This document shows, in pieces, positions 58-44,856 of a stretch of 48,150 bases of DNA (positions are counted from its first letter, which is position 1; each line of letters begins with the position of its first letter). The notes under the pieces were generated by a model that saw only the letters and a list, made by a program, of their open reading frames with translations, searched no databases and was not told the origin of the DNA. Source of the stretch: Halobacteriales archaeon (GTDB lineage Archaea > Halobacteriota > Halobacteria > Halobacteriales > Hikarchaeaceae); contig JBDGQL010000093.1 in NCBI GenBank assembly GCA_042219105.1, positions 1 through 48,150 of the forward strand. Reading direction: 5' to 3'. The position numbers and the translations under genes are program-made.

Positions 58-136
58 TACTGTCGGACAGAGACATTGATAATCGAACCCCCGGGACGGG
101 GCGCCTTCGAATTATCAATACTTCTGTCCGACAGTA
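58..136 (+). mobile_element. MITE-A copy, 79 bp, flanked by TC/TC
   Basis: The termini TACTGTCGGACAGA ... TCTGTCCGACAGTA form a terminal inverted repeat, and the inner arms (CATTGATAATCGAA / TTCGAATTATCAATA) also pair. TC at 56-57 is repeated at 137-138. The same element recurs at 13987, 18704, 19819 and 29653. Confidence 0.85.
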
Positions 137-188
137 TCCCACATAATAGTTAGCCGAGTGGTGTTTTTCGCGGGCCACTCGCCCAGGG

Positions 189-195
189 TATTATA
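189..195 (+). promoter_or_regulatory. TATA-like box for the sulfatase gene at 221
   Basis: TATTATA is centred about 29 nt upstream of ATG 221. The same spacing is seen at more than 15 genes in this window. Confidence 0.4.
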
Positions 196-220
196 CCATC
201 GTGTATTCAATCGAAGCGTG

Positions 221-1732
221 ATGTCGCGAGGAGACGATATTGAGCGCCCGAACGTCCTGTACGTGATGGCCGACGACCACGCTGCGAACGCGATAGGCGC
301 GTACGGCTCACATCTCACGGAGGTCGCACCGACCGAGAACATCGATCGACTGGCTCATGAGGGGGCTCGGCTCGACAACTGCACGTGTACAAACTCGATT
401 TGCACGCCCAGCAGGGCGTCGATTCTCACCGGTCAGCACAGCCATACCAACGGGGTGAGGACGCTGGCCGACGAGATGGATCCCGATCGGAGGCATCTCG
501 CACACCACCTCCAGGATGCGGGCTACCGGACGGGGATCGTCGGGAAATGGCATTTAGAAACCGAGCCACAGGGGTTCGATTACTACAACGTTCTCCCGGG
601 ACAGGGGCGGTACGACGACCCGCTACTGAAACGACGAGGCGAGCCGTGGGATGGTGATGGACAGGTTTACGACGGTTACTCCGCGGACGTGATCACAGAT
701 CAGGCGCTGGGCTGGCTGGAGGGCACAGTGGGTGGAGGAGCCGGGCACGGGGACGACCCCTTCTTTTTGCAGTGTCATTTCAAGGCACCGCACAGAGCAT
801 GGAAGTACCCACACCGCCACGCGGACCTGTTCGAGGGGAGGCGGATCCCCGAACCGGCTAGCCTCTTCGAGGACAAGTCACACCGGTCAAAAGCGGGGCG
901 CGAACACGGATCCAGGATCTCCTCGAAAAACCCCGTACAGCCGATGGTCGAAGAGGTGAAGGCGGGCGACCTGGGACGCGAGGGAGGCATCGACACGACT
1001 GGCATGGACGAGAAAACCCGCACCCGGGCGGCGTATCAGCGCTATCTATCGGACTACCTGCGCACGATAGCGGGCATCGACGATAACGTGGGGCGACTGC
1101 TCGACTACCTCGATGACGCCGGACTCGCCGAGGACACGCTCGTGATCTACACCTCCGATCAGGGGATGTTCCTCGGCGAGCACGATCAGTATGACAAACG
1201 GTGGATGTACGAGGAGTCCCATCGGATGCCGTTCATCGCACGGTATCCGGAGGAGATCCCGGCTGACACGTTCGTCGATGATCTCGTGGCGAACGTGGAT
1301 TTCGCACCCACGATCCTCGACTATGCCGGCGTTGACGTTCCCGACCGGATGCAGGGCCGGAGCGTCCGCGGGAGTCTCGCCGGCGACCCGTCTGCCGATT
1401 CGAGGGAGGCGGTGTACTACCGCTACTGGATGCATCGGGCACACCACGACGTGCCTGCACACTACGGGCTTCGTACCGACCGGTACAAGCTGATTTTCTT
1501 CTACGGACTACCGTTGGATGCGACCAACGCAGGTGATGACCCCTCTCCCCCCGGATGGGAGCTGTACGATCTGGAGCGTGATCCACACGAACTGAACAAC
1601 GTGTATGACGACCCCGCCTACGCCGACGTTCGCGAGGAGTTGAAACGCCGGCTCACCGAGCGCAAGCGAGCCCTCGGCGACGAGGACGATGGGTACCCGG
1701 AACTGGTCGAGTTGAAAGAAAAACACTGGTGA
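221..1732 (+). CDS. Type I sulfatase (Cys-type), no signal peptide
   Basis: ORF 158..1732; the internal ATG at 221 (MSRGDDIERPNVLYVMADDH) has the TATA spacing. It has the DDH metal-site motif, the formylglycine motif CTPSRASILTG (C-x-P-x-R) and GKWHL. Confidence 0.9.
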   Translation: MSRGDDIERPNVLYVMADDHAANAIGAYGSHLTEVAPTENIDRLAHEGARLDNCTCTNSICTPSRASILTGQHSHTNGVRTLADEMDPDRRHLAHHLQDAGYRTGIVGKWHLETEPQGFDYYNVLPGQGRYDDPLLKRRGEPWDGDGQVYDGYSADVITDQALGWLEGTVGGGAGHGDDPFFLQCHFKAPHRAWKYPHRHADLFEGRRIPEPASLFEDKSHRSKAGREHGSRISSKNPVQPMVEEVKAGDLGREGGIDTTGMDEKTRTRAAYQRYLSDYLRTIAGIDDNVGRLLDYLDDAGLAEDTLVIYTSDQGMFLGEHDQYDKRWMYEESHRMPFIARYPEEIPADTFVDDLVANVDFAPTILDYAGVDVPDRMQGRSVRGSLAGDPSADSREAVYYRYWMHRAHHDVPAHYGLRTDRYKLIFFYGLPLDATNAGDDPSPPGWELYDLERDPHELNNVYDDPAYADVREELKRRLTERKRALGDEDDGYPELVELKEKHW

Positions 1733-1800
1733 GGCCGTATCCACGATCCGGTGGCTTCGAAGAAGGCCATTGCGAAGGGAGCATCGACCGGGTCTTTTTA

Positions 1801-1878
1801 TACGGGTCGACAGAACTATTGATAGAATTCGCCACCCCGGGATGACGAATATCTCCATCGAGTCACAGCCGACAGTAT
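1801..1878 (+). mobile_element. Chimeric MITE with a B-type left arm and a C-type right arm, 78 bp, flanked by TA/TA
   Basis: The left end TACGGGTCGACAGAACTATTGATAGAATTCGCC matches MITE-B. The right end CGAATATCTCCATCGAGTCACAGCCGACAGTAT matches MITE-C. The join lies in the shared GAATTCGCC..CCGG core. Confidence 0.75.
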
Positions 1879-1883
1879 TAATT
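1876..1883 (+). promoter_or_regulatory. TATA-like box for the CoA-transferase gene, formed at the MITE end and its TA flank
   Basis: TATTAATT is centred about 27 nt upstream of ATG 1906. Bases 1876-1878 belong to the chimeric MITE and 1879-1880 are its flanking TA. Confidence 0.4.
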
Positions 1884-1905
1884 GATGCGGGTGCGAGCCG
1901 TGGCT

Positions 1906-3120
1906 ATGGAACAGGCGCTATCAGGTGTAACAGTTGCAGACTTCTCCCAGATGATGCAGGGCCCCTGGGCGACACAGAAACTGGCAGAGATGGGAGCAGA
2001 CGTGATCAAGATCGAACGCATCGGCGGCGAGTGGGAGCGAACCCTGGCTCCGGGTGGTGAACTCCAGGAGGGCGTCAGCCCTTTTTTCCTGGCGATGAAT
2101 CGTAACAAACGTAGCATCACTCTTGATCTCAAGGAACCCGAGGGGCACTCTATCGCCCTTGACATCGCCTCGGAAGCCGATATTCTGTTCGAGAACTTCA
2201 GACCTGGCGTCATGGATCGGCTAGATCTGGGCTACGACGACGTCACCGAAGTCAACCCTAATATCGTTTACGTCTCTGGGTACGGGTTCGGGAGTGACGG
2301 TCCATACGTCGACCGACCGGGCCAGGACCTCCTGTTGCAGGCGATGAGCGGCCTAACAAAAACGACGGGCCGGAAGAACGATCCGCCGACGCCGGCGGGG
2401 TCCGCAGTCGTCGACGAGCACTCGAGTATGCTTCTGGTGTTCGCTACGATGGTCGCGCTCTTTCATAAGGAACGTACGGGAGAGGGCCAACACGTCGAGG
2501 GGAATCTCTTCAGTGCCGCAATCGACTTCCAGTGCCAGGAGATCACTGCCGAGCTATCGTTGGAAAAGGAGTTCGAACGGAGTGACGCCGGGATCGCGAG
2601 CCCGTACAACGAACCTCCCTACGGTATCTACGAGACTGCCGATGGACACATCGCCATCGCCATGGCGGAAATTCTGACGTTGACAGACATCCTCGACATC
2701 AATCCGTCCACGTTGCCCCCGTTCGACGCCCCGGCGGAGTCGTTCGAGAACCGAGACGAGATCAAACGGATAATCGAGGAACACACGCGGGAGCAACCCA
2801 CTGAAAAGTTGTTAAACGACCTGCTGGCCGAGGACGTCTGGACCGCGGAGGTGAACGATTTCGAGGATCTCGTGGACGACCCGCAGGTGGAGCACAACGA
2901 GATGCTCGTCGAAATGGACCACGAGGAGTACGGCTCCTTCACGACCACGGGAATTCCGGTTTCGCTGTCGGAGACGCCCGGCGAAATCTCCTCGACGCCT
3001 CCAGTACCGGGAGAGCACACTCACGAGATTCTCACCGACCTCGGATACGACGAGGAGATGATCCAGTCCGCCATCGAAGGCGGGATCACGACGTCGCCAC
3101 ACTCCGATAGTTCGGACTGA
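1906..3120 (+). CDS. Family III CoA-transferase (CaiB/BaiF type)
   Basis: ORF 1882..3120 starts at TTG; ATG 1906 (MEQALSGVTVADF) is preferred. Motifs: GPWATQKLAEMGADVIKIE, NRNKRS, ENFRPGV, GYGFGSDGPY..GQDLLLQAMSG. Confidence 0.88.
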   Translation: MEQALSGVTVADFSQMMQGPWATQKLAEMGADVIKIERIGGEWERTLAPGGELQEGVSPFFLAMNRNKRSITLDLKEPEGHSIALDIASEADILFENFRPGVMDRLDLGYDDVTEVNPNIVYVSGYGFGSDGPYVDRPGQDLLLQAMSGLTKTTGRKNDPPTPAGSAVVDEHSSMLLVFATMVALFHKERTGEGQHVEGNLFSAAIDFQCQEITAELSLEKEFERSDAGIASPYNEPPYGIYETADGHIAIAMAEILTLTDILDINPSTLPPFDAPAESFENRDEIKRIIEEHTREQPTEKLLNDLLAEDVWTAEVNDFEDLVDDPQVEHNEMLVEMDHEEYGSFTTTGIPVSLSETPGEISSTPPVPGEHTHEILTDLGYDEEMIQSAIEGGITTSPHSDSSD

Positions 3121-3257
3121 CACACTACTCGGCTCTGCACGACGCGCCCGGCGGAAACTCTCGCCGGAAAGACCATTTCCTGCATGCCCTCTCGAAACAC
3201 GTCGTCCAGCGGTGTGTCGAGGAAGGTGTCGAGACGATGGCCGTTATCGATGTCGGG

Positions 3258-5222
3258 TTACGCCGGATCGATCCGAACCCGTGCCTCGCGGAAGCGCCGG
3301 AGGGTTCGGTCGTCCCACTGCAGACTGACGGGGACGACGTGGATCCCGGCCTCGGCATTCGCGGGCACGCCCAAGATGAGTTCGATCGATCCGTTCTCGC
3401 CGGGAGCGACTGACGAGGACGGCCATCGTCTGTCGATTTTCCGGACCCCTTCTCTCTCGTGATACGGGTCGACAGAACTGTTGATAGAATTAGCCTCCAC
3501 CGTACCCGGCGAATATCTATCAGGACTTCTGTCGACCCGTAGATTCCATGTCCAGCCCGGCGGTAACTCCGGGCGGGCCGCAAACTCCCGATTCCGGTCC
3601 GCGTAGTTCGTGACACAGACGTCTATCTGTGCGTTCTCGCCCGGTGCGCGCGTCTGGTCGTACGGGACGCACCGCGCCCAGTGGGGATCGAGCCCGAAGT
3701 CGGGGTGCTCCCAGGCAAGGAGCTCGCCGAACAGTTCCTCCCGCTCGCGCAGGTTCTTCCGCATGAAGATCATCTGGTCGTCAGTGAACGTGAAGGGATC
3801 TTCGACGTGACAGTTGAACACGTGCGTCGGATCGAGGTCCTCCACTGTGTCGAGACACTGCCGGTATCCCCGGTTGGCGCCGACGGGGTTCCGGTTGTGG
3901 GCACAGTAGTCATCCATCCCGCTCGGCGTGAACGCGTCCCCCGCAAAGAGGAGCCGCCGGCCACGCCCTTCGGCGAGCAGGGCGGCGTGGTACCGTGTCT
4001 GTCCCGGGAGCCAGTGCGCCGAGAGCGTCCATTCGTGCCAGTTCCACTCCTCGCCGTCCGTGAAGACGCGGTCCACGTCGATCCGATCCGGGATCTGACA
4101 GGGCAGACGGTACACCTCGGGCGCCTCTATGACGTCGGCGACATGGCGCTCCGCCAGGATCGGGGCGTCGAATGACTCTTGGAACTCTGGGACGGCCCCG
4201 ACGTGATCGTGGTGGTAGTGCGTGAGCCAGAGTGCGGATATCTCCCGCGCCTCGCCTTCGGTTATCCACGACCGGAGGCGGTCAAGAACGTCGACCCACC
4301 CACAATCCATGGCGAGGGCGTGACCGTCGGCAGAGAGCAAGGCCCAGGTGGTGCCGACGTGCTTCACTTCCGGCGGGCAGGGCGTCGGGTCTCTGACGGG
4401 CATCGTGTCCTCGGCGAACGGGCTGTCGAACATCTCGGGACCGTAGTGTCTGAGAGCTGACGTGCGCACGTAGGCCCGGTACGCCGCTTCGATCAGTTGG
4501 CTCACCGAATCCACGACTTCGGACGGTCGGTGGATCGGATCCCCACGAGCAGGGACTATTACGTCAGCGTCCGAGATCCGTGCCAGACTACCGAGATACC
4601 GCTTTCGGTCCCCGAGGAAACCGTGGTAGTCGTTCCAGTCGCCGTGATATCGCTGCAAACTGTAGGCGTCCCACAGCGCCCCTGTCCCGTGGAGTAGGTC
4701 GCCGGAGAAGATGTACCGTGCATCCGATCCATCGCGCGCCTGTGCCAAGTCGAACGCATACGAGACGCTGTTCTCGGTGTGTCCTGGCGTGGGGAGAACT
4801 TCGAACCGCAGGTCGCCGAGGACGACGTCTTCGGCCGGTTCGACGATCTCGTCGACCGGAATCGGGCGCGCCGGGAGCAAGGGATGCGGGCGGAAGTCCG
4901 TCAGGTGCCACCGAAACTCCGGGTCGACCCAGAACTCCGCCACCGACTCGAAATACTCGCGCTCTGCGGCGGGGACGACGATGTCGATGCCTCGTCGGGC
5001 GAGAGAGCGCGCACCACCCGCCGTGTCCCGGTGGTAGTGTGTAAAAAGGGCCGCCTTGATATCGAATCTTCGGCTCTCCTCAAGCTCGTCGACGATGGAC
5101 GCGTCGTCGCAGTCGATTAGGACGGCCTCGCCGCCTTCGTGAACGACGCTCACGTTCGTCGAGGACCGGTAGAGACCGACGCCTTCGTCGAGACGGTGCC
5201 ATCCCGTGATCGCCCGGCTCAT
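3258..5222 (-). CDS. Tandem metallo-beta-lactamase-fold hydrolase carrying an in-frame MITE insertion
   Basis: 654-aa ORF with two MBL repeats. The N-terminal repeat has the degenerate motif THYHRDT and the second has the canonical THYHHDHVG (HxHxDH). The residues LRVDRSPDRYSPGTVEANSINSSVDPY near the C-terminus are encoded by MITE-B (3463-3541) plus one flank. Confidence 0.8.
   Translation of the reverse strand: MSRAITGWHRLDEGVGLYRSSTNVSVVHEGGEAVLIDCDDASIVDELEESRRFDIKAALFTHYHRDTAGGARSLARRGIDIVVPAAEREYFESVAEFWVDPEFRWHLTDFRPHPLLPARPIPVDEIVEPAEDVVLGDLRFEVLPTPGHTENSVSYAFDLAQARDGSDARYIFSGDLLHGTGALWDAYSLQRYHGDWNDYHGFLGDRKRYLGSLARISDADVIVPARGDPIHRPSEVVDSVSQLIEAAYRAYVRTSALRHYGPEMFDSPFAEDTMPVRDPTPCPPEVKHVGTTWALLSADGHALAMDCGWVDVLDRLRSWITEGEAREISALWLTHYHHDHVGAVPEFQESFDAPILAERHVADVIEAPEVYRLPCQIPDRIDVDRVFTDGEEWNWHEWTLSAHWLPGQTRYHAALLAEGRGRRLLFAGDAFTPSGMDDYCAHNRNPVGANRGYRQCLDTVEDLDPTHVFNCHVEDPFTFTDDQMIFMRKNLREREELFGELLAWEHPDFGLDPHWARCVPYDQTRAPGENAQIDVCVTNYADRNREFAARPELPPGWTWNLRVDRSPDRYSPGTVEANSINSSVDPYHEREGVRKIDRRWPSSSVAPGENGSIELILGVPANAEAGIHVVPVSLQWDDRTLRRFREARVRIDPA
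3463..3541 (+). mobile_element. MITE-B copy, 79 bp, flanked by GA/GA, inside a CDS
   Basis: TACGGGTCGACAGAACTGTTGATAGAATTAGCCTCCACCGTACCCGGCGAATATCTATCAGGACTTCTGTCGACCCGTA. GA at 3461-3462 is repeated at 3542-3543. The coordinates are anchored on the codons of ORF 3258..5222. Confidence 0.9.
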
Positions 5223-5456
5223 TAGCCCTATCTCGCGCAGCCTTGATCAAGAAACTCCCGGTCGATCTCCTATATTTCGCACCCCTCTACCACGGACGAT
5301 CAATTTCTCCTCTGGCGGTTAGTCTGGAATTGGAGGAACCGCATTTACGGGTCGAGGGAAGTCCTGATAGTGCCATTTTCGCCGTGACCTTTCAGCTGCA
5401 TTCATAATCAACTGCTCAGGATCACACTTCGCCTGGAAGTGCGACGATTCAACAAC

Positions 5457-5462
5457 ATTTAT
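5457..5462 (+). promoter_or_regulatory. TATA-like box for the crotonase gene
   Basis: ATTTAT is centred about 27 nt upstream of ATG 5487. Confidence 0.35.
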
Positions 5463-5486
5463 CATCACCTCAGGACACGTCCACCC

Positions 5487-6263: not shown

Positions 6264-6286
6264 CGGACATGCCGAGTCCTACACTA

Positions 6287-6475
6287 TACACTCGGACACG
6301 AATAGTTCAACACGCAGGTCGATTATACGGGTCGACAGAAGCCGTGATAGATATTCGCCGGTACGGCAGAGGCGAATTCTATCAACAGTTCTGTCGACCC
6401 GTATATTCCCGGTCAAAACGATGTCTCCCGGTCGATCAGGGGACGATCACGTTGACTGGTTCGTGTCCGGGTGTA
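6287..6475 (-). mobile_element. MITE-D copy carrying a nested MITE-B
   Basis: The termini are TACACTCGGACACGAA ... TTCGTGTCCGGGTGTA. It is the reverse complement of the uninterrupted copy at 8159..8267, apart from the 78-bp element plus TA at 6326-6405. TA is present on both outer flanks (6285-6286, 6476-6477). Confidence 0.85.
6326..6403 (-). mobile_element. MITE-B copy (78 bp) nested in MITE-D, TA target duplication
   Basis: The filled site reads GGTCGAT-TA-[TACGGG...CCCGTA]-TA-TTCCCGG. The empty site in the other D copy (reverse complement of 8221-8240) reads GGTCGAT-TA-TTCCCGG. Confidence 0.9.
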
Positions 6476-6479
6476 TAGA

Positions 6480-8012: not shown

Positions 8013-8034
8013 ACGCCGTTCATCGCCAAGAAAC

Positions 8035-8079: not shown

Positions 8080-8158
8080 TACTGTCGGCTGTAAGTTCGT
8101 GGAGGAATTCGCCACCCCGGGGTGTCGAATATCTCCATCGAGTCACAGCCGACAGTAT
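8080..8158 (+). mobile_element. MITE-C copy, 79 bp, flanked by TA/TA
   Basis: TACTGTCGGCTGTAAGTTCGTGGAGGAATTCGCCACCCCGGGGTGTCGAATATCTCCATCGAGTCACAGCCGACAGTAT. TA is at 8078-8079 and 8159-8160. Further copies are at 20079 and 31409. Confidence 0.85.
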
Positions 8159-8267
8159 TACACCCGGACACGAACCAGTCAACGTGATCGTCCCCTGATC
8201 GACCGGGGGACATCGTTTTGACCGGGAATAATCGACCTGCGTGTTGAACTATTCGTGTTCGGGTGTA
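8159..8267 (+). mobile_element. MITE-D copy, uninterrupted (about 105 bp plus terminal TA)
   Basis: TACACCCGGACACGAACCAGTCAACGTGAT ... TTCGTGTTCGGGTGTA. It is directly abutted by MITE-C on the left and MITE-B on the right. Confidence 0.85.
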
Positions 8268-8346
8268 TACGGGTCGACAGAAGTCCTGATAGATGTTCGC
8301 CGGGTACGGTGGAGGCTAATTCTATCAACAGTTCTGTCGACCTGTA
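8268..8346 (-). mobile_element. MITE-B copy, 79 bp
   Basis: TACGGGTCGACAGAAGTCCTGATAGATGTTCGCC...GTTCTGTCGACCTGTA. TA lies on both sides (8266-8267, 8347-8348). Confidence 0.88.
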
Positions 8347-13986: not shown

Positions 13987-14065
13987 TACTGTCGGACAGA
14001 GACATTGATAATCGAACCCCCGGGACGGGGGGCCTTCGAATTATCAATACTTCTGTCCGACAGTA
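13987..14065 (+). mobile_element. MITE-A copy, 79 bp, flanked by GA/GA
   Basis: Full element; GA at 13985-13986 is repeated at 14066-14067. It lies between the stop of the LigM-like gene and the start of the Gfo/Idh/MocA gene. Confidence 0.88.
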
Positions 14066-15602: not shown

Positions 15603-15624
15603 TACGAGTCGACAGAACTATTGA
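15603..15624 (+). repeat. Solo MITE-B terminus
   Basis: TACGAGTCGACAGAACTATTGA, preceded by TA, matches the B left arm. No partner arm is present. Confidence 0.55.
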
Positions 15625-15732
15625 CTGGCAGTTCACCACTGACGATGCTCGGATCAAGCTACGCTAGCTCTATCCCGTTGAACTCGAAGAGGATCTACAG
15701 ATTTAGGGTTAAAGCTACACTAAGAGCCCATG

Positions 15733-15739
15733 ATATATA
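15733..15739 (+). promoter_or_regulatory. TATA-like box for the epimerase/dehydratase-family gene
   Basis: ATATATA is centred about 29 nt upstream of ATG 15765. Confidence 0.4.
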
Positions 15740-15764
15740 GCGCTTGCAAACAAACAAATGCTGC

Positions 15765-16694
15765 ATGGATCGGGTTCTCGTCACCGGAGGGTTCGGCAGA
15801 GTCGGGCCGTGGGTCATAGAACAATTTCTGAACGAAGGATACGAGGTTGCCTGTGTCGACCAGCAGGCACCCGAGACATCCATCCCCGGAGTGTCGTTCT
15901 TCGAGGCTGACCTCACGGAGCAGGGTGCCGCGTGGGAGATATTATTCGAGTATGACCCGGACGCAATCGTCCACCTGGCCTCCGTGGCGCGTGCCGCCAG
16001 CGAACAGCACGGAACCGCCGTGTTCTCTGCGAACGCGCGCATGACATACCATCTGCTGGTCGCAGCCGGACACGCGGACGTGCCAGTCGTCTGGACCTCA
16101 AGCGAAACCGTCTACGGACCGATGCATAGCGACGGCGAGTGGCAGGTAGATCGTCTCCCGGTCGACGAGTCCAGTCCGACTCGGCCGACCGGCGCGTACC
16201 CGACTTCGAAGCTGACGGGCGAGGTGATCGCCGGAGCGGTCGCCAGGGAATTCGACCTGTCAATCGCGTCGGTCCGTCCTTCCTGGGTCGTCCGTCCGAT
16301 CGACGCAGCCGGGATTCCAGGACCGACGTACGCGGAGCTGTCGGATCTCCGAGAGTCGTTCGATCCCGAATCCGTGACATCGACTTGGAACCTCTGGTCG
16401 TACGTGGACGTCCGAGATCTCGGGCGCCTCCTCTTGGCGGTGATCGCCGGGGAATTCGAGGGCCACGAACTCTTTCTCGGGGTCGCCGACGAGAACTATC
16501 TTGACCGCTCGACCGCTGAGGCTGCCCAGGCGATTGGGGAGAGTTTCCCGTCAGAGTGCTCGTTGAGCGGAGACCAGTCCGCGCAGTCGAATGCGAAAGC
16601 CGAGCGCGTGCTCGGCTGGACGCCGAGTCACTCTTGGAAGAGCGCGACCCCCACCGATGTGTCCACGCCGTCCGTGCTGGAGGCGGTCCGGTAG
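15765..16694 (+). CDS. NAD-dependent epimerase/dehydratase (extended SDR) family
   Basis: ORF 15744..16694 starts at TTG; ATG 15765 (MDRVLVTGGFGRVG) is preferred. It has the canonical YPTSK (YxxxK) motif. Confidence 0.85.
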   Translation: MDRVLVTGGFGRVGPWVIEQFLNEGYEVACVDQQAPETSIPGVSFFEADLTEQGAAWEILFEYDPDAIVHLASVARAASEQHGTAVFSANARMTYHLLVAAGHADVPVVWTSSETVYGPMHSDGEWQVDRLPVDESSPTRPTGAYPTSKLTGEVIAGAVAREFDLSIASVRPSWVVRPIDAAGIPGPTYAELSDLRESFDPESVTSTWNLWSYVDVRDLGRLLLAVIAGEFEGHELFLGVADENYLDRSTAEAAQAIGESFPSECSLSGDQSAQSNAKAERVLGWTPSHSWKSATPTDVSTPSVLEAVR

Positions 16695-16884
16695 TCGCGC
16701 GACGGATACAGTTCCGGATCGCACGAAGCCTACAACTGCACTGTCGGATGGGAGAATAATAGCGACCGTTCTCGTCCAACATGTCGTCATAAGGACGGAT
16801 GTAAGTCTTTACCGATGCGCTCGCGTGAGACCGGCGGATTCGGCCGATATCCGCCGGCTCGGCGAGCGCGCGATGAAAACAGTT

Positions 16885-16937
16885 TTCGAAGGCCCCCGTC
16901 CTGGGGGTTCGATTATCAATGTCTCTGTCCGACAGTA
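16885..16937 (-). repeat. Half MITE-A (one arm plus core)
   Basis: TTCGAAGGCCCCCGTCCTGGGGGTTCGATTATCAATGTCTCTGTCCGACAGTA followed by TA. The other arm is missing. Confidence 0.7.
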
Positions 16938-17032: not shown

Positions 17033-17114
17033 ATAATGTCTGTTGTAGCTGTTTACCGGTGATCGCCACCCCCGGCGGCGGCGAGCACCGGTAAGAGACT
17101 ACAACAGACATTAT
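17033..17114. mobile_element. MITE-F, 82-bp palindromic element
   Basis: The termini ATAATGTCTGTTGTAG ... CTACAACAGACATTAT are perfect inverted repeats, and the inner arms TTACCGGTGATCGCC / GGCGAGCACCGGTAA pair. If the element is read as 17036..17111, TA flanks both sides. It lies 17 nt downstream of the stop at 17131. Confidence 0.7.
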
Positions 17115-18619: not shown

Positions 18620-18840
18620 CTGTCTACCTCGAAATCCCGGATCTGCCCCTCGAAGCGGGGCCCACACGGCGGGTGCTTTAGATCGGGGTCGACCGTATCA
18701 ATATACTGTCGGACAGAAGTATTGATAATTCGAAGGCCCCCCGTCCTGGGGGTTCGATTACCAATGTCTCTGTCCGACAGTATATGTGCGGTCCCTCGGC
18801 CCGTGAGCCCGATGATAGCGTGTTGTAACACGTCGTCCAT
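18616..18840 (-). CDS. Short upstream ORF (74 aa; 47 aa without the in-frame MITE-A)
   Basis: ATG 18840 lies 28 nt from a TATA-like box. The stop TGA overlaps ATG 18619 of the next gene as ATGA. Residues ILSDRDIGNRTPRTGGLRIINTSVRQY are encoded by the MITE. Confidence 0.35.
   Translation of the reverse strand: MDDVLQHAIIGLTGRGTAHILSDRDIGNRTPRTGGLRIINTSVRQYIDTVDPDLKHPPCGPRFEGQIRDFEVDR
18704..18782 (-). mobile_element. MITE-A copy, 79 bp, TA/TA
   Basis: Full element in reverse orientation. TA is at 18702-18703 and 18783-18784. Confidence 0.88.
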
Positions 18841-18923: not shown

Positions 18924-18955
18924 TACACCCGGACTCGAACCAGTCAACCTGAACG
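18924..18955 (+). repeat. MITE-D left-end fragment
   Basis: TACACCCGGACTCGAACCAGTCAACCTGAACG matches the D left arm. It lies next to MITE-B at 18962. Confidence 0.55.
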
Positions 18956-18961
18956 TTAGTA

Positions 18962-19040
18962 TACGGGTCGACAGAACTGTTGGTAGAATTAGCCTCCGCC
19001 GTACCCGGCGAATATCTATCAGGACTTCTGTCGACCCGTA
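18962..19040 (+). mobile_element. MITE-B copy, 79 bp, TA/TA
   Basis: Full element; TA is at 18960-18961 and 19041-19042. It lies 7 nt downstream of the amidohydrolase stop codon (19048-19050, minus strand). Confidence 0.88.
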
Positions 19041-20078: not shown

Positions 20079-20158
20079 ATACTGTCGGCTGTACGTTCGT
20101 GGAGGAATTCGCCACCCCGGGGTGTCGAATATCTCCATCGAGTCACAGCCGACAGTAT
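20079..20158 (+). mobile_element. MITE-C copy, 80 bp, TA/TA
   Basis: Same sequence as 8080..8158 apart from one substitution (A to C, GTAAG to GTACG) and one extra G. TA is at 20077-20078 and 20159-20160. Confidence 0.85.
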
Positions 20159-23142: not shown

Positions 23143-23164
23143 TACTGTCGGACGGAGACGTTGA
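23143..23164 (+). repeat. Solo MITE-A-like terminus
   Basis: TACTGTCGGACGGAGACGTTGA matches the A (or E) left arm. No partner arm follows. Confidence 0.5.
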
Positions 23165-23180
23165 GGATCCACCCCTTCTT

Positions 23181-27737: not shown

Positions 27738-27816
27738 TACGGGTCGACAGAACTGTTGATAGAATTAGCCTCCACCGTACCCGGCGAATATCTATCAGGA
27801 CTTCTGTCGACCCGTA
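27738..27816 (+). mobile_element. MITE-B copy, 79 bp, TA/TA, inserted in a stop codon
   Basis: TA is at 27736-27737 and 27817-27818. The pre-insertion sequence reconstructs to ...GAC GTG CGG TAA on the minus strand. Confidence 0.9.
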
Positions 27817-29575: not shown

Positions 29576-29703
29576 GGTACCGTGTGGGTCAATCACGTGT
29601 CCGGTACTTAACTCTGGCGTGAGTCGTCAGTGGTCACGCCGGAAAGCAGGTATACTGTCGGACAGAGACATTGGTAATCGAACCCCCAGGACGGGGGGCC
29701 TTC

Positions 29704-31203
29704 CTGTGTCGTTTCGAGTATTTAAAACCGGCTGGAAGCCGATAGTGACGACCTGATGTCTGGTATTTCATCAGCCAGGTCGCCATCAGAGGTAACGGAC
29801 ACCGAGTATTTCAATCCTGACCGATCCACCCCAAGTGCAGTGTACTCGCTGCTCGACTCCGTCGACAGCGAGTCTATCGCCGACGAATATGACATCGGGA
29901 GGTACAGCTCCACACACGACCTTGAGAACCACGTCAAAGTCGGCATCCGTGAGGGTCTCGATCCATCTGACTCGCTGGAAGAACTCGCCCAAACAACTGA
30001 TACAGCCGAGGGACTGGACTACATGGCTGCCTCAACGTTCTCCCGGTACACGAACGACCGCGACTACAGCGCGGTCGTTCGTCTCCTGTTCGAACTGTTT
30101 CAGACTCGGCGGCTGTATCATCAGCGTGGCGTCCAGCGCAAACGTCTCAAGTGGCTGAGCCGCGGTGTCATTGCGACTGATGCAACCAATCTCACACTCA
30201 CTCGATCAGTCACAATGCAGGAGGAGAGTTCAACAGACGGCGATCCAGCTGAAATTACCCCGAGCGACGGTGGACTCGCACTTCACATGGCCGCGCGCGT
30301 GGATGTGGAGCAGAAACATCCAGTCGGTATCGGTGTGAGCCAGGGCCAGTCCCACGAAAGCCCGTATTTCGACGCACTCAGAGATGATGTCGAGGTCTTC
30401 GCAGACCTCGACTCGGCCATTCTAGTCTTCGATCGTGGTTACACACGCTATGCACGGTTCTGTGAAATCAAACACAGTGACGACGACTTCGTCACACTGT
30501 TACGGTCGGATGCTCGCGTCGACGTCCTGAAGCAGATCCAGGACGTCGAAATCACGGTGCGGCGAGAGCGAGACGGTGATCGTGACGACACCGAATCGTA
30601 CCGTGTCCGCGATGACTGGATAGAACTCAGCGAGACAGGCGAAGAGTTCCGGCGTGTGACCCTGGAAACACCAGACGGCGAGGTGATGGAGTACCTGACG
30701 ACGTTGTCACCAGCTGAGTACGATCCGATTGAGGTAATCCAAATATACACGCTTCGTACTTTGATCGAAATACTATTTCGTGAACTGAAACAGTATCTGA
30801 ATGTTGAGAATTTCCACTCAACAACGCTTAACGGCGTGCTGTTTGAGTTGTTCTGCTCGCTGATTGGATTCGTGTTGATTCACTGGTTACGCCAGCACTA
30901 TCCGCTGAAAGACGGCGTGGCAGATACAATTCAACAGGTCCGATCCAACTGGAACGAGACGCTGAGGTCGTTCGGCTGAGCCCTACTCACGGCGGCGCAC
31001 GCTGCCGCCGTGAGCGACTGCTCCAGTCAATTCGTCCAAAACCAATCAAATAGTTGAATATAGTTGATGACTTGCGCTCGTTTCACTAGTTCAGCGCAGT
31101 AAAATTGGGATTACACCGAACGCTTAGTGTTCGCTCAGTGCATGTATCCCGGCTTGAGCACTCTCTGGCCGCTCGCCGTTTTTAAATACTCGAAACGACA
31201 CAG
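29704..31203 (+). mobile_element. IS4-family insertion sequence, 1500 bp
   Basis: It has a 24-bp perfect terminal inverted repeat, CTGTGTCGTTTCGAGTATTTAAAA, and an 8-bp direct repeat GGGCCTTC (29696-29703 and 31204-31211). It holds a single transposase ORF and an internal perfect 11-bp-stem hairpin at 30986-31014. GC content is visibly lower than in the flanks. Confidence 0.9.
29756..30979 (+). CDS. DDE transposase, IS4 family
   Basis: 407 aa. Candidate DDE blocks are VIATDATN and LVFDRGY, plus the IS4 signature Y-x2-R-x3-E-x6-K in YTLRTLIEILFRELK. Confidence 0.88.
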   Translation: MSGISSARSPSEVTDTEYFNPDRSTPSAVYSLLDSVDSESIADEYDIGRYSSTHDLENHVKVGIREGLDPSDSLEELAQTTDTAEGLDYMAASTFSRYTNDRDYSAVVRLLFELFQTRRLYHQRGVQRKRLKWLSRGVIATDATNLTLTRSVTMQEESSTDGDPAEITPSDGGLALHMAARVDVEQKHPVGIGVSQGQSHESPYFDALRDDVEVFADLDSAILVFDRGYTRYARFCEIKHSDDDFVTLLRSDARVDVLKQIQDVEITVRRERDGDRDDTESYRVRDDWIELSETGEEFRRVTLETPDGEVMEYLTTLSPAEYDPIEVIQIYTLRTLIEILFRELKQYLNVENFHSTTLNGVLFELFCSLIGFVLIHWLRQHYPLKDGVADTIQQVRSNWNETLRSFG

Positions 31204-31408
31204 GGGCCTTCGAATTATCAATACTTCTGTCCGACAGTATAGTAGTTTCCATCTTTCCCAGCGAACTCCGACTCCCTCGGGGAGTCGACGCGCCCGTGTA
31301 TCTGCTCGGCGGTCTGGAACGAACGCAACAGACAACTGGAGTAGATGACCACGATGTTCGGCCGATCGAATGTCTCATTACTGGGCATTCGGACTTTGAT
31401 TTTTCTTA

Positions 31409-31487
31409 TACTGTCGGCTGTAAGTTCGTGGAGGAATTCGCCACCCCGGGGTGGCAGATATCTCCATCGAGTCACAGCCGACAGTAT
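31409..31487 (+). mobile_element. MITE-C copy, 79 bp, TA/TA
   Basis: TA is at 31407-31408 and 31488-31489. It is near-identical to 8080..8158. Confidence 0.85.
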
Positions 31488-38330: not shown

Positions 38331-38355
38331 GGGCCGGTAAAGGAAGATGACCTAC

Positions 38356-38364
38356 TTTAATTTA
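38356..38364 (-). promoter_or_regulatory. TATA-like box in the divergent sulfatase intergenic region
   Basis: TTTAATTTA is centred about 30 nt upstream of ATG 38330 on the minus strand. Confidence 0.4.
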
Positions 38365-38424
38365 CTGGTTCCGGAGGATCAAACGATCACAGAGCACATA
38401 TACACTCGGTCGGACGGTAGAGGT

Positions 38425-40155: not shown

Positions 40156-40157
40156 TA

Positions 40158-40236
40158 TACGGGTCGACAGAAGTCCTGATAGATATTCGCCGGGTACGGT
40201 GGAGGCTAATTCTATCAACAGTTCTGTCGACCCGTA
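40158..40236 (-). mobile_element. MITE-B copy, 79 bp
   Basis: It starts 2 nt after the sulfatase stop TGA (40153-40155), with TA at 40156-40157. It abuts MITE-E on the right. Confidence 0.88.
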
Positions 40237-40312
40237 TACTGTCGGACGGAACTGTTGATAATTTCGCTCGCCCACCGTGCGAGCAGAATATCATTCGTTC
40301 CGTCCGATAGTA
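40237..40312 (+). mobile_element. MITE-E, a 76-bp variant related to MITE-A
   Basis: The termini TACTGTCGGACGGAAC ... GTTCCGTCCGATAGTA match 15 of 16 as inverted repeats. The inner arms GATAATTTCGCTCGC / GCGAGCAGAATATC pair. TA follows at 40313-40314. Confidence 0.7.
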
Positions 40313-40326
40313 TATTAACCGATCCG

Positions 40327-40354
40327 CATGTTACCCTGTTCGTGTCCGGGTGTA
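40327..40354 (+). repeat. MITE-D right-end fragment
   Basis: CATGTTACCCTGTTCGTGTCCGGGTGTA parallels the last 28 nt of the D copy at 8159..8267. Confidence 0.5.
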
Positions 40355-40368
40355 GAGGAGTTGCCCGA

Positions 40369-41169
40369 TTACTGGAGGTTTCCGCCGCCGCTAACCCGGA
40401 GAATGTGGCCGGTGACGTAATCGGCCCTGTTACTGGCTAAGAACAGAACCCCATCAGCGAGGTCCTGGGGCTGGCCCAACCGGCCCATCGGGCGTTTCTC
40501 GCCCCAGTCCGCAAGCACCTCCTCGGTCGTTCGATCGGAGTCCGCCGCCACCTCCCGGGCTTCCTTACGGAGTTGGTGGGTCTCGGTCACGTCGGTCGAT
40601 ATCGCGTTGACACGAATGCCGTGTTCCGCGAAGTCACACGCCATGCGCCAGGTCAGCCCGTTGACCGCGGTGTTCGAGACCCCGTAAAACCGTCGGGGCC
40701 CCGATCGCCTGTCCCCCGTCTGGCTAGTGACGTTCACGATGGTTCCCTCGGTGCCCTCTTCGACCATGTGTCGGGCGAGCAACTGTGAGAGATAGAACTG
40801 CGACCGCACGTTCACGTCGATCGTATCGTTCCAGTCGTCCAGGCTCGCTTCGAGCATGTGATCCTCCCGCCAGATGGCCGCGTTGTTGACCAACAGGTCG
40901 ATCGGGCCGATCGCCCCGATGGCCTCCCTCGACAGGCGCTCGATGCCCTCCGGCTCGGCGACGTCGGCAGCAACACCGTGAACGCTTCCGGGTCCGAGTG
41001 ATCCGAGTTCGTCGGCCGTTTTCCGGACGTCCTCCGGCGTCCGGGAGTTCACCACGACGTTCGCACCTGCTTCGACCAGTCCCTTCGCGATTCCCCGGCC
41101 GATGCCCTTCGTGGAACCAGTTACCACCGCCGACTCGCCCTCGAAATCAAACGCGGCTTTCCCGACCAT
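40369..41169 (-). CDS. Short-chain dehydrogenase/reductase with an atypical YxxxN motif
   Basis: 266 aa. It has VVTGSTKGIGRG and NNAA, but FYGVSNTAV where YxxxK is expected. Confidence 0.85.
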   Translation of the reverse strand: MVGKAAFDFEGESAVVTGSTKGIGRGIAKGLVEAGANVVVNSRTPEDVRKTADELGSLGPGSVHGVAADVAEPEGIERLSREAIGAIGPIDLLVNNAAIWREDHMLEASLDDWNDTIDVNVRSQFYLSQLLARHMVEEGTEGTIVNVTSQTGDRRSGPRRFYGVSNTAVNGLTWRMACDFAEHGIRVNAISTDVTETHQLRKEAREVAADSDRTTEEVLADWGEKRPMGRLGQPQDLADGVLFLASNRADYVTGHILRVSGGGNLQ

Positions 41170-41317
41170 ATCCGCTCTGGTCAGTCAGGAAACCTAAATG
41201 TTCGGTGTCGTGTGCCCCGGTTTCGACGGCGAGTCGTCAGCGAACTCCTACTCCGTGGCATCCGGCGAGTGGGAACCGGCGTAACTGTTCACTCGACGAG
41301 GTCGCCTCTCTCGGTGG

Positions 41318-41329
41318 TTTTATTAATAT
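41318..41329 (+). promoter_or_regulatory. TATA-like box for the small membrane-protein gene
   Basis: TTTTATTAATAT is centred about 27 nt upstream of ATG 41350. Confidence 0.4.
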
Positions 41330-41349
41330 GAAACGTGTTAACCGCGAAC

Positions 41350-41595
41350 ATGGGTACAATGGAACGAGATCAAAAAGAAAAACTCTCCGAGAACGTTGTT
41401 CTCAACCTAATACTGCGCACGCTCTATGCGATCAGGACGTCGTTCTCGAAGTTTTTCATCGCTCTGGGTACCGTATTCATCATACTTGGGATAATTCAAC
41501 AGGACGGAGTGTTTGCCGGATTATCCGTTATAATCGGTGTCACTATAATTCTGTATGGGGCGATCGCGTACGTCGTGGCACGACTACTGTTGTAG
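41350..41595 (+). CDS. Small (81 aa) two-TM membrane protein, low-GC gene
   Basis: Part of ORF 41335..41595. Its hydrophobic segments are FFIALGTVFIILGII and FAGLSVIIGVTIILYGAIAYVVA. It uses AT-rich codons (AAA, ATA, ATT, TTA) that are rare in neighbouring genes. Confidence 0.55.
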   Translation: MGTMERDQKEKLSENVVLNLILRTLYAIRTSFSKFFIALGTVFIILGIIQQDGVFAGLSVIIGVTIILYGAIAYVVARLLL

Positions 41596-41606
41596 TCGAT
41601 CCACGA

Positions 41607-43124
41607 CTACTCCCTGTGGGCGTCTTCCGGGTCGTCGCGGTCGATCGAATATCCCGGCCCTCCGAGATGGTCGAGCGGCGTGGGGTTCGTGGCGCCCCCG
41701 TGTTCCCACCAGCGCCGGGTCCAGATCGTGTGTGCCTCGGTCTCCCCCTCCCGGGGAGCGGAACGGTCTCCCGGGATCACCGGCTCCTCGGTGGTCGCGT
41801 AGAAGTCGAGCAGCCGTTCGGTCAATCGTAGCCGAACCGATCGGTACTCCTCCTCGTCGTAGAGATCGTCGTGCTCCCAGGGGTCCTCGCTGATGTGGTA
41901 CAGCTCCCCACCCTCACCGTTGACGTAGTGCGTCAGTTTCCACTCGTCGGTCCGTATCGTCCGGTGGGTTGTATCCTCACAGACGGTTACCTCCCGGTCG
42001 ACCGTCCCATCACCGGCGAGGACGCCGGCCAAGCTCTCTCCCTGCACCGGGTCCGGAACCGGGAGATCCAGAAGGTCACACAGCGTCGGAAACACGTCGA
42101 TGCTCTCGACGAGATCGCCGTTGACGGCGTCGGATCGAGCGCCTTCCGGCCACCGCCACACCATCGGGATCCGGTGGACCGCCTCCGAGATGCCGACGTT
42201 CTTCCGCACGAGGCCGTGCTCGCCGGCGAAGTCACCGTGATCCGACCCGAACACCACGACGGTGTTCTCCAACTCGCCGGTCTCCCAGAGGTGTGACAGG
42301 ACGCGGCCGATCTGCTCGTCGATCAGCGTGATCAGCGCGTAGTAGTAAGCGACGACCTGACTGATGTCGGCGTCGCTGCTTTGCTGGAACAGGTCGCGTC
42401 GCGCGGCCGCCTGCCACTCGGGGGGCTTGTCGTCGAACTCGCCGTCATCCCGGGGTGGGAGATCTATCTCCGCCGGATCGTACAGATCGGCGTACTCCGG
42501 GGGTGGGCAGTACGGGGGGTGGGGCCGCTGGAAGGACATCCACGCGAAAAAGGGGTCGTCGCCGTTTCTCTCCCGTAGCCAGCGCAGGGTTTCGTCCGCG
42601 GTCCACCGCTCGACGCTGTGTTCGGCCGGAATGTTCGAGACGAACGCGGTGTGTGGGTACTCGGTCGAGGCCGGGCCGAGGTCGTACTCCTCGGAATACC
42701 CCACCCGTTCGAGATACTGGTAGTAGTCGTTCTCGTGGGGGTGGTCGGCGACGTCTGAGAAGTCACAGGTCCGGCGGACGTCGAACCCGTGTGTCGTCCA
42801 GTCGATCGGGAGGTGGAGTTTGCCGAACCCGCCGGTGTCGTAGCCGTTGTTCCCGAGGTGCCGGGCGAGCGAGAGCGTGTCGTCGGGAACGCCGCCGTAG
42901 TTGCCGTACACCCCGTGGCTGTGTGGGTACCGACCGGTCATGTAGCTCATCCGGGAGGGCATACAGATGGGGTTCTGACAGTAGGCGCGATCGAAGCGAA
43001 CGCCCTCGGCGGCCAGGCGATCGATTGCCGGCGTCTCGACGGTGTCGTTTCCGTAACACCCCAGACACCGGGCGTTGTGCTGGTCGTCCATGATAAAGAG
43101 GACGTTCGGCGAGTCCGATGACAT
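41607..43124 (-). CDS. Type I sulfatase (Cys-type), no signal peptide
   Basis: MSSDSPNVLFIMDDQH, CMPSRMSYMTG. Confidence 0.9.
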   Translation of the reverse strand: MSSDSPNVLFIMDDQHNARCLGCYGNDTVETPAIDRLAAEGVRFDRAYCQNPICMPSRMSYMTGRYPHSHGVYGNYGGVPDDTLSLARHLGNNGYDTGGFGKLHLPIDWTTHGFDVRRTCDFSDVADHPHENDYYQYLERVGYSEEYDLGPASTEYPHTAFVSNIPAEHSVERWTADETLRWLRERNGDDPFFAWMSFQRPHPPYCPPPEYADLYDPAEIDLPPRDDGEFDDKPPEWQAAARRDLFQQSSDADISQVVAYYYALITLIDEQIGRVLSHLWETGELENTVVVFGSDHGDFAGEHGLVRKNVGISEAVHRIPMVWRWPEGARSDAVNGDLVESIDVFPTLCDLLDLPVPDPVQGESLAGVLAGDGTVDREVTVCEDTTHRTIRTDEWKLTHYVNGEGGELYHISEDPWEHDDLYDEEEYRSVRLRLTERLLDFYATTEEPVIPGDRSAPREGETEAHTIWTRRWWEHGGATNPTPLDHLGGPGYSIDRDDPEDAHRE

Positions 43125-43148
43125 CAGGCTACTGGATTAGCCAAACAC

Positions 43149-43156
43149 ATAAATAA
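43149..43156. promoter_or_regulatory. Single AT-rich box shared by divergent sulfatase genes
   Basis: ATAAATAA is the only AT-rich element in the 57-bp spacer. It is centred about 28 nt from ATG 43124 (minus strand) and about 30 nt from ATG 43182 (plus strand). Confidence 0.45.
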
Positions 43157-43181
43157 CTCCCGGGAACACTGTTCTGAGCGT

Positions 43182-44696
43182 ATGCCGTCACGCAACGTTC
43201 TCGTCGTCCTCTGTGACCAGCTCCGCCCGGACTTCCTGTCCGCGTATGGATGTGGGGCGGTTTCCACGCCCAACATCGACCGGCTGGCAGACGCAGGTAT
43301 CGTGTTCGAGAACGCGATCACCCAGTCCACGGTGTGTGCCCCGGCCCGGGCAACGATGATGACGGGCCGGTACGTGTCCGACCACGGGGTCTGGACCAAC
43401 GACGTCCCGTTCCGGGACGGCCTCGAATACCTCCCCGAACGGATGAACGAGGCCGGGTACGCGACCGGGGCGTTCGGGAAACTCCATCACTATCCCTCCC
43501 ACGACGCCAAGGGCTTCCGGGAAACCGACCTGATGGAAGAGGGCCGCCTGGGCGAGTCGGAGCCGTACCTGCAGTGGCTCAGGTCACGACGGCCGGATGT
43601 CGAAGGGATCTGGAACTACGACGACTACACCTTCGCCTTCGACGAGGAGGAGTACCACGAACACTGGATCGCCTCGCGGGCCATCGAGTTCATTGAGCGA
43701 CGCGCCGACGAGGGACCCTTTCTCACGTGGGTCTCCTTCCAGGGGCCACACGCCCCACTCGACCCGCCATCAGCCGTGAAGGGAATGGTCGATGCCGAAC
43801 AGCTTCCGGAGCCCCTCGAACGGCCCGACGACGACCTCGCTCCCGTCGCCCGGTACAGAAAGGCCCGCAGTCCCGGCGCCGAATCTCGCGGGGAGGTGAT
43901 GGCCCGGCGGACCGCGTACGCCGAGATCATCGTCGAAATCGATCGCCAGATCGGCCGGCTCCTCGATCGCCTAGAAGCACTCGACGTCATGGCGGAGACG
44001 ACCGTCATCTTCACCGCCGACCACGGTGACCTGCTGGGGGATTTCGGCCTCGAGGCAAAGGGGCCGTATCCATATCGCGGACAGCTCGACGTCCCGATGA
44101 TCGTCGCCAATCACCCGGAACTACCCTCGGGAGCACGCTCGGATCGGCTCGTCGGCACGATCGACGTTCCGGGAACCTGTCTCGACGTCGCCGGCGTCGA
44201 CGAACGGATCGGCGCCACGCGGTCGGTCATCGAGCAGGTGAACGCGCCGGCCGAACACGCCAGGGACGTCGTCTTCAGCGAGTTCTGTGACTCGATCAAG
44301 ACTGTCTACGACGGGCGGTACCTGTACAGCTACTATCCGTTTTCGGAGCGAAGCGAACTGTACGACCGCAACGAGGATCCCGACGAGACACGGAACCTGG
44401 CAGGGGATCCGGAACACGCACGGACCGAGACGAGGATGCTGAAACACCTGCTCGATTTCGGAACCCTGACCGGCGGCGTCCGCGTCGAGGCACACGACAT
44501 GGTTCCCGACCAGCAGACCGGTCTCCGCGAGAAACACCCCCGGTTCGACCGGGAGTTCGAGGTCGCGTACCCGCTGTCCGCCGCGGACCGGGAGAAACTC
44601 CGGGAGGCCGGGCTCTCGACGGACTACAACGAGTTCTGCCGGGGGGAGGATCCGGTCGCCAACTACGCGGACCCATACTGGGTCGACGACGGGTAG
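43182..44696 (+). CDS. Type I sulfatase (Cys-type), no signal peptide
   Basis: MPSRNVLVVLCDQLRPDF, CAPARATMMTG. Confidence 0.88.
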   Translation: MPSRNVLVVLCDQLRPDFLSAYGCGAVSTPNIDRLADAGIVFENAITQSTVCAPARATMMTGRYVSDHGVWTNDVPFRDGLEYLPERMNEAGYATGAFGKLHHYPSHDAKGFRETDLMEEGRLGESEPYLQWLRSRRPDVEGIWNYDDYTFAFDEEEYHEHWIASRAIEFIERRADEGPFLTWVSFQGPHAPLDPPSAVKGMVDAEQLPEPLERPDDDLAPVARYRKARSPGAESRGEVMARRTAYAEIIVEIDRQIGRLLDRLEALDVMAETTVIFTADHGDLLGDFGLEAKGPYPYRGQLDVPMIVANHPELPSGARSDRLVGTIDVPGTCLDVAGVDERIGATRSVIEQVNAPAEHARDVVFSEFCDSIKTVYDGRYLYSYYPFSERSELYDRNEDPDETRNLAGDPEHARTETRMLKHLLDFGTLTGGVRVEAHDMVPDQQTGLREKHPRFDREFEVAYPLSAADREKLREAGLSTDYNEFCRGEDPVANYADPYWVDDG

Positions 44697-44775
44697 TACG
44701 GGTCGACAGAACTGTTGATAGAATTAGCCCCCACCGTACCCGGCGAATCTCTATCAGGACTTCTGTCGGCCCGTA
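44697..44775 (+). mobile_element. MITE-B copy, 79 bp, first unit of a head-to-tail dimer
   Basis: It begins on the nucleotide after the sulfatase stop TAG (44694-44696). A single TA (44776-44777) separates it from the second unit. Confidence 0.88.
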
Positions 44776-44777
44776 TA

Positions 44778-44856
44778 TACGGGTCGACGGAACTGTTGAT
44801 AGAATTAGCCTCCACCGTACCCGGCGAATATCTATCAGGGCTTCTGTCGACCCGTA
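44778..44856 (+). mobile_element. MITE-B copy, 79 bp, second unit of the dimer
   Basis: It has the same orientation as the first unit and differs from it at a few positions. TA follows at 44857-44858. Confidence 0.88.

Follow-up and report, generated by a model that had tools for sequence, protein, structure and literature searches.

Do the short palindromic elements that crowd one haloarchaeal sequence belong among the repeats adapted to life inside protein genes, or is their occasional presence in a gene incidental? The sequence is a 48,150-bp stretch from a Halobacteriales archaeon (positions 1 to 48,150 of contig JBDGQL010000093.1, GenBank assembly GCA_042219105.1), referred to here as the window. 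Exact protein matches show that it is a complete contig of a metagenome-assembled genome. Its GC content is 60–66%, the proteins it encodes are strongly acidic, and among its genes are those for five or more sulfatases and for many enzymes of sugar-acid metabolism and oxidoreductases. It also holds about 22 full and 6–7 partial copies of related palindromic elements, families A to G, which occupy 4.2% of the window at roughly one element per 2 kb. [quoted passage not shown]

The palindromic elements are MITEs

The elements were first described in a reading of the letters alone (the sequence-only reading), which called them MITEs and counted about 21 full and 7 partial copies. The count was approximately right, although family G (46304–46389) lies beyond the range it covered, and the label is borne out by inverted terminal repeats, target duplications and two empty sites. 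All elements start with TAC and finish with GTA, and we measured their lengths between these limits. Their termini include TACTGTCGG and TACGGGTCGAC. Terminus matches in the window numbered 13 for A, 18 for B and 7 for C, against 0.01–0.05 expected, and the D, E and F ends were likewise found. Copies of one family are 94–100% identical to each other, which suggests recent spread. The elements also have the generic features of MITEs, being 77–109 bp long, non-coding and multicopy, with dozens of copies in other genomes. They are new families of a known kind.

Two empty sites prove that insertion took place. The first is in the closest homologue of an MBL-fold protein encoded in the window (P0001, on JGI contig L001), which lacks the B copy found in the window gene. 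The second is within the window. The intact D element at 8159–8267 (109 bp) reads ...GATTATTCC..., whereas the D element at 6287–6475, a member of the same 109-bp family, reads ...GATTA, then a nested 78-bp B copy (6326–6403), then TATTCC...; the B copy lies at an internal TA, which is duplicated.

Full A/B-type copies, 13 of them in the window and 66 in other genomes (here and below, among the matches listed), gave 79 pairs of flanks in which to tally duplications. Identical dinucleotides flank 74 of the 79: TA/TA in 66, GA/GA in five, TC/TC in two and AA/AA in one. The flanks differ from side to side in five. Each of the eight identical pairs other than TA is one base away from TA. Within the window, A and B copies are bounded by tc/tc once, by ga/ga twice and by ta/ta in all other cases, and TA flanks on the few D and E copies point to the same 2-nt TA stagger. 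Family C, and not A or B, has a 3-bp TNA duplication, seen as TCA/TCA, TGA/TGA or TTA/TTA in 10 of 14 copies. All three versions occur in other genomes, and TTA flanks all four window copies with a C right end. A 2-bp direct repeat had been claimed for every copy; this is correct for A and B and wrong for C. The related statement that each insertion adds 81 bp holds in the window for A and B (79 + 2) and for C (78 + 3) alike.

Hairpin architecture

Each element is a near-perfect, long hairpin that spans its whole length; folding z-scores for families A, B, C and E are -7 to -9.6. The terminal inverted repeats comprise an outer part of 14–16 bp and an inner TGATA box. The 14-bp outer repeat (element positions 1–14) has the form TAC-N6-AC(A/G)GA and is paired. 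It is followed by a 5-nt spacer that is conserved, unpaired and different at the two ends, with positions 16–19 essentially never complementary. The inner inverted TGATA box (positions 20–26) is paired again, and the centre is variable. This combination of outer repeat, unpaired spacer and paired TGATA is common to nine lineages that are less than 85% identical to each other, and we found the same architecture in at least nine metagenome-assembled genomes (MAGs) of Haloarculaceae and other Halobacteriales. Positions 15–26 of A/B/E-type copies (for example, window 72–83) make a bipartite end that is differentiated between left and right. It looks like two adjacent protein-binding sites.

Very stable folding and an architecture conserved across genomes, together with the many copies placed immediately behind a stop codon or between convergent or divergent genes, would fit hairpins whose chief function is for the host, such as REP-like sequences, transcript-end or mRNA-stabilizing hairpins, or small RNAs. 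We regard this as very improbable. Target duplications, empty sites, nesting, gene disruption and insertion in both orientations all argue for transposition. Positions 15–19 show conservation without pairing, and in-register pairing of the centre is weak. Scanning the window against Rfam and for tRNAs gave no match. The hairpins may nevertheless have a secondary, co-opted role in the host.

Are the elements fitted to coding regions?

The sequence-only reading proposed that the elements, as units of exactly 27 codons with few stops, are suited to being tolerated inside protein genes in the manner of Rickettsia palindromic elements. Some of our observations agree with this. A, B and C each add 81 bp, each has four of six frames open, several genomes have 79 bp as their most frequent length, and the single read-through copy falls in a loop predicted to be disordered, within a fold that is otherwise modeled with confidence. 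Taken with the results below, we nonetheless find it very unlikely that the elements were shaped to be frame-neutral and stop-poor.

The count of four open frames in six is correct for A, B and C, but it does not extend to D and F (one of six each) or to E and G (three of six each), and it is not above chance. The stops of A, B and C are supplied by TGATA(A/G), the conserved box that occupies element positions 20–25. Because the element is palindromic, four of six open frames really amounts to two of three. Palindrome-preserving shuffles reached at least four open frames with P = 0.25 for A, 0.10 for B and 0.25 for C. Among random 79-mers from the window, 62% reached at least four of six, or 28% when matched for GC.

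Neither is the unit fixed at 27 codons. Lengths of the 66 full copies listed from other genomes ranged from 64 to 81 bp (two copies of 64 bp, three of 70, two of 72, six of 73, one of 75, three of 77, five of 78, 25 of 79, 18 of 80 and one of 81), and they are held neither to 79 bp nor to 3n + 1. They form a single peak at 79–80 bp with a tail of deletion variants and no period of three, and the 80-bp copies are nearly as frequent as the 79-bp copies. Among the matches in Haloarcula sp. LUM.49, 80 bp is commoner than 79 bp, and those in QS_5_68_33 are only 80 and 81 bp long. The recurrence of 79 bp suggests that length is constrained by the architecture of the element and not by codons. In the window itself, 13 of 16 full A, B and C copies had been given as 79 bp, with one C copy of 80 bp; we measured all three C copies at 78 bp and none at 80 bp.

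The position of the copies relative to genes points the same way. We excised each of 91 full A, B and C copies in silico (window plus other-genome matches listed). Excision gave a continuous coding-like open reading frame (ORF) in only two, at 3463 and 19819, both of them in the window and one of them in the stop-containing frame. Coding sequence makes up 90% of the non-mobile bases of the window and 80% of its TA dinucleotides. Only 2–4 of 17–24 independent insertion events in the window touch coding sequence (P < 1e-6), so insertions are strongly depleted there. The usual place for a copy is shortly behind a stop codon, in a divergent promoter region or up against another MITE. The proposed suitability for residence in genes, already weakened by open-frame counts that are not significant, is not supported by these figures. 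We infer that purifying selection, or target avoidance, causes the intergenic bias. In a published census, 88.9% of archaeal MITEs were intergenic and MAGs of Haloarculaceae were the most MITE-rich archaea (PMC11602168); both the bias and the abundance seen here agree with that census. For prokaryotes, in-frame fusions that arise from MITEs within genes have been called "not unusual" (PMC10969869).

An in-frame insertion in an MBL-fold hydrolase gene

The claim that an 81-bp insertion can be read through was upheld in one gene. The MBL-fold hydrolase gene at 3258–5222 (minus strand) contains a B copy at 3463–3541 (79 bp plus a duplicated GA) in frame, at protein residues 562–587. The copy is read through as RVDRSPDRYSPGTVEANSINSSVDPY and lengthens the protein by 27 residues. 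In the closest homologue, P0001, which has 84% amino-acid identity, ...WTWNSH leads directly to REWSSSS.... At the DNA level, the insertion relative to the L001 gene is 79 bp plus the duplicated dinucleotide, and taking 81 bp out of the window gene gives ...WTWN-HERE.... The segment between the conserved residues P554 and P620 is 28–44 residues long in 42 homologues versus 66 in the window protein. The gene order on L001 differs from that of the window, the MBL gene there adjoining a sulfatase pair. An exact look-up of the MBL protein returned no record.

An AlphaFold2 model of the protein was of high overall confidence, with a mean pLDDT of 89 and a pTM of 0.88. The sole internal segment with pLDDT below 50 was residues 564–597, which form a loop joining two strands in the beta-sandwich at the C-terminal end. 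The 27-residue insertion falls in a hypervariable, predicted-disordered loop. The B copy at 3463 is a genuine and structurally plausible in-frame MITE insertion.

Other effects on genes

The other intragenic copy had a different outcome. The A copy at 19819–19897 (79 bp plus TA) lies within the amidohydrolase gene at 19048–19994 (minus strand), in a frame that contains TGA TAA. It splits the gene, so that the N-terminal MRFIDTHTHAWG..., in which the metal-binding HxH motif lies, is separated from the remainder of the amidohydrolase. Excising the copy in silico restores one continuous ORF. The gene is a probable pseudogene.

A 79-bp B copy at 27738–27816 landed in the native TAA stop codon of a minus-strand xylose-isomerase-like gene, at the TA of that codon. 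As a result, the ORF is seven codons longer (YTGRQKS) and ends at the TGA of the MITE; excision gives ...DDVR-stop. In LUM.49 (L059, 1993–2072), a gene at 2051–2860 (minus strand) likewise ends within an 80-bp MITE, so gene 3' ends that run into these elements are not unique to the window.

Two B copies in tandem, separated by TA (44697–44856; 79 bp each, at 44697–44775 and 44778–44856), stand right after the TAG stop of a sulfatase gene. TAG flanks the pair on both sides, and the native stop is kept. Contig L001 has the same sulfatase TAG followed by a 22-bp spacer. A simple TA insertion at 44694–44859 would have given TAT and a seven-codon extension. A mutation that restored the stop, a duplication of 3 bp or transposition of the dimer as one unit could account for the TAG flanks. 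In L001, a related metagenomic contig (8829–8852; 82–89% nucleotide identity), about 22 bp separate the sulfatase stop from the next gene, and relative to it the window has an extra 1.69 kb (44697–46388) made up of the two B copies, an entire further sulfatase gene (44897–46300, minus strand) and the G element.

Two read-throughs, one premature stop and one stop replacement had been counted in the window. Both stop cases, at 19819 and 27738, were as described, and only one read-through, at 3463, is real. Further candidate read-throughs at 58, 8268 and 20080 were rejected. In each case the gene truly starts downstream of the element, and the ORF that seems to run through the copy is a spurious extension in the upstream direction.

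An IS4-family element inside an A copy

Could the window itself supply the transposase? The A-type sequences at 29653 and 31204 had been taken for two separate partial copies. They are one 79-bp A copy (29653–31239) split into 29653–29703 and 31204/31212–31239 by an unrelated insertion sequence (IS) of the IS4 family. This IS occupies 29704–31203 on the plus strand, is 1500 bp long, and has 24-bp inverted repeats (CTGTGTCGTTTCGAGTATTTAAAA) and a transposase gene at 29756–30979. The transposase, at 407 aa, matched NCBIfam IS4_1 with E = 8e-60. The element is intact-looking, and its transposase forms a single-member cluster in a collection of 15 billion proteins.

The 1.59-kb element from 29653 to 31239 has A-type termini at both ends and encodes a DDE transposase, as would a full-length parent from which the MITEs, or at least family A, arose by deletion and by whose transposase they are mobilized. 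This origin is so improbable as to be nearly negligible. The transposase belongs to the IS4 family, and the inner 1500 bp have different 24-bp inverted repeats of their own, with a perfect direct repeat of 8 bp (GGGCCTTC) as the boundary. Excising the IS with one copy of GGGCCTTC restores a 79-bp A element with two mismatches to the A copy at 13987. Nor can the 8-bp duplication of the IS be reconciled with the flanks of A copies, in which 2 bp are duplicated.

Mechanism and the search for a partner

We favor the view that a transposase whose gene lies elsewhere in the genome, most plausibly of the DDE type, moves the MITEs in trans. Such an enzyme would make cuts with a 2-nt stagger, mostly at TA, for A and B, and with a 3-nt stagger at TNA for C. 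A 2-nt TA stagger is of the IS630/Tc1 type and a 3-nt TNA stagger of the IS5/Harbinger type. Insertions would accumulate in intergenic DNA, at TA-containing stop codons and beside earlier copies whose ends supply TA; the last of these would give rise to arrays and nested copies. Insertions inside genes would be rare survivors. With an 81-bp unit and two of three frames free of stops, an occasional copy in a loop could be read through.

Several observations weigh against this account. We found no autonomous element with matching inverted repeats in the window, in at least 67 genome loci or in 120 metagenome loci. ORFs neighbouring solitary termini in the genome loci encode ordinary enzymes (levansucrase, photolyase, phosphoglucomutase and others), and an all-against-all megablast of these loci found no shared long repeat. 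When metagenomes were scanned for B termini without the TGATA box, the matches were 15-mers attributable to chance, came from unrelated environments and had no partner in inverted orientation. The genome loci come from a scan of one genome per GTDB species and lie in fragmented MAGs. Families A and C have the terminal 9 bp TACTGTCGG in common, yet their duplications differ in length, and two duplication lengths at one shared terminus would be unusual for a single transposase. Finally, 79 bp is the modal length in at least seven genomes despite unrelated central sequences, so some constraint on length exists. The IS630/Tc1-type partner proposed earlier was not confirmed, and the only transposase in the window, that of the IS4-family element, is unrelated to the MITEs.

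Shared TAC termini, the asymmetric spacer, the 79-bp mode, duplications of both 2 and 3 bp, a B/C hybrid and the lack of a partner could together indicate an undescribed haloarchaeal transposase lineage, with a length or geometry requirement or a variable stagger, or a hairpin that is itself the substrate of transposition. We think this unlikely, if less so than the other alternatives weighed here. The B/C hybrid (1801–1877, intergenic) is 77 bp long and has a B left end, a C right end and TTA/TTA flanks. A 2.65-kb pair of termini in L059 was considered as a possible autonomous element and rejected; it consists of one full MITE and one truncated end.

Three chance matches to bacterial genomes aside, the genome loci belong to MAGs of Haloarculaceae and of other Halobacteriales. 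Listed carriers include Haloarcula sp. LUM.49, Halovenus, QS_5_68_33, Halorientalis and a Haloquadratum MAG, among others. The PLSDB plasmid collection had no match to the MITEs, a scan of viral contigs gave four low-GC chance matches and no MITEs, and a full-text literature search for the MITE termini found nothing relevant.

Comparison with known systems

Families A and B resemble the "Stowaway-like" MITEs of the TA-duplicating IS630/Tc1-mariner group, such as MITEEc1. Both are about 80 bp, non-coding and multicopy, and both form a full-length hairpin. They also share inverted terminal repeats, a 2-bp duplication (TA in 66 of 79 copies here), intergenic location and insertion beside one another. 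Unlike them, the window-type elements have eight non-TA duplications and a terminal TA of their own (TAC...GTA), and among the loci searched we found neither an IS630-family partner nor a matching inverted repeat. Family C resembles the "Tourist-like" MITEs of the IS5 family (IS1031/IS427) and of PIF/Harbinger in its 3-bp TNA duplication, which is a hallmark of the IS1031/IS427 and Harbinger groups. It differs from them in sharing its terminal 9 bp with the 2-bp-duplicating family A, and no IS5-type partner was found in the loci searched. IS5 ends start with GG or GA, and the inverted repeats of the window appear unlike them.

Rickettsia palindromic elements lack a clear inverted-repeat and duplication signature. 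They are palindromic selfish repeats, as the window elements are, and one window copy is translated as a loop insertion with the predicted fold intact. The two have no sequence relationship. Rickettsia palindromic elements are often found inside ORFs (PMC10969869), whereas window-type copies are intragenic in two of 91 listed, one of which kills its gene. Frequent in-frame residence in intact genes was thus not seen, with one read-through and one disruption among the 91.

The HqIRS MITEs and small mobile repeats of Haloquadratum walsbyi are likewise haloarchaeal, transposase-free and short; they far outnumber transposons, and mobile elements there tend to insert into or next to one another (PMC3119063). 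The A-type small mobile repeats of Haloquadratum are about 110 bp long and make no duplication (PMC3119063). None of the window MITE termini appear in the supplementary tables of that paper (PMC3119063), and one related 79-bp copy is present in the Haloquadratum MAG. REP/RAYT repeats are palindromes of 20–40 bp with a GTAG/CGTC tag and no target duplication. The window elements, by contrast, are 78–109 bp long, run from TAC to GTA and have clear duplications.

The window reveals no new principle. Fusions of MITEs in frame have been described before, and our results do not support adaptive design. It does document a very high local MITE load in an archaeon, with effects on genes that are easy to read: a 27-residue loop added, a gene killed, and a stop replaced by a seven-residue tail. 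These cases are relevant to how MITEs shape gene ends. They are also useful for annotating haloarchaeal MAGs, in which contigs break at MITEs and ORFs are spuriously extended through them.

Remaining copies in the window

Four further A copies are present. The first, at 58–136 (79 bp, flanks tc/tc), is about 80 bp upstream of a sulfatase start (~218). Full-length copies also lie at 13987–14065 (79 bp, flanks ga/ga, intergenic) and 18704–18782 (79 bp, TA/TA), and an intergenic copy at 16885–16937 is truncated to element positions 1–54. A solitary A/E-like terminus occupies the intergenic positions 23143–23170.

B copies of 79 bp stand at 8268–8346, abutting the intact D element about 55 bp upstream of the start of an SDR gene; at 18962–19040, just 3' of the amidohydrolase stop; and at 40158–40236, 2 bp past the TGA stop of a sulfatase gene. 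A 25-bp intergenic fragment of B (5346–5370) has 92% identity. The C copies lie at 8080–8157, at 20080–20157 (upstream of the start of an FAA-hydrolase gene, ~20230) and at 31409–31486, each 78 bp long with TTA/TTA flanks.

The E copy (40237–40314, 78 bp) directly abuts the B copy at 40158 and is followed by a truncated D right end at 40317–40354. A truncated D left end at 18924–18959 is followed by TA and then by the B copy at 18962. Family F is a single palindromic copy of 82 bp at 17033–17114, with ends ATAATGTCTGTTGTAG.

Family G is represented by an 86-bp palindromic element at 46304–46389 with ends TGATAGGGTCGG, and a G-end remnant, CCGACCCTA, lies immediately upstream of it. Ends related to family G also occur in other Haloarculaceae genomes. 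The form TGATA(G/C)GGTCGGTTGT recurs in L005, L008, L009, L043, L045 and L069, sometimes directly abutting A/B-type MITEs, as at 2018–2035 of L069.

An NAD-dependent epimerase gene at 15741–16694 is bracketed by a solitary B-like end on the plus strand (15603–15625, one mismatch, intergenic) and the truncated A end at 16885 on the minus strand, both with TA flanks. The arrangement from 15603 to 16937 resembles a composite element and is probably a coincidence of two decayed MITEs. Lastly, sequence L002, an independent assembly of the same organism (Logan, SRR28304479), is 100% identical to window positions 40218–44725. Both of its ends fall inside MITE copies, which indicates that these repeats break short-read assemblies.

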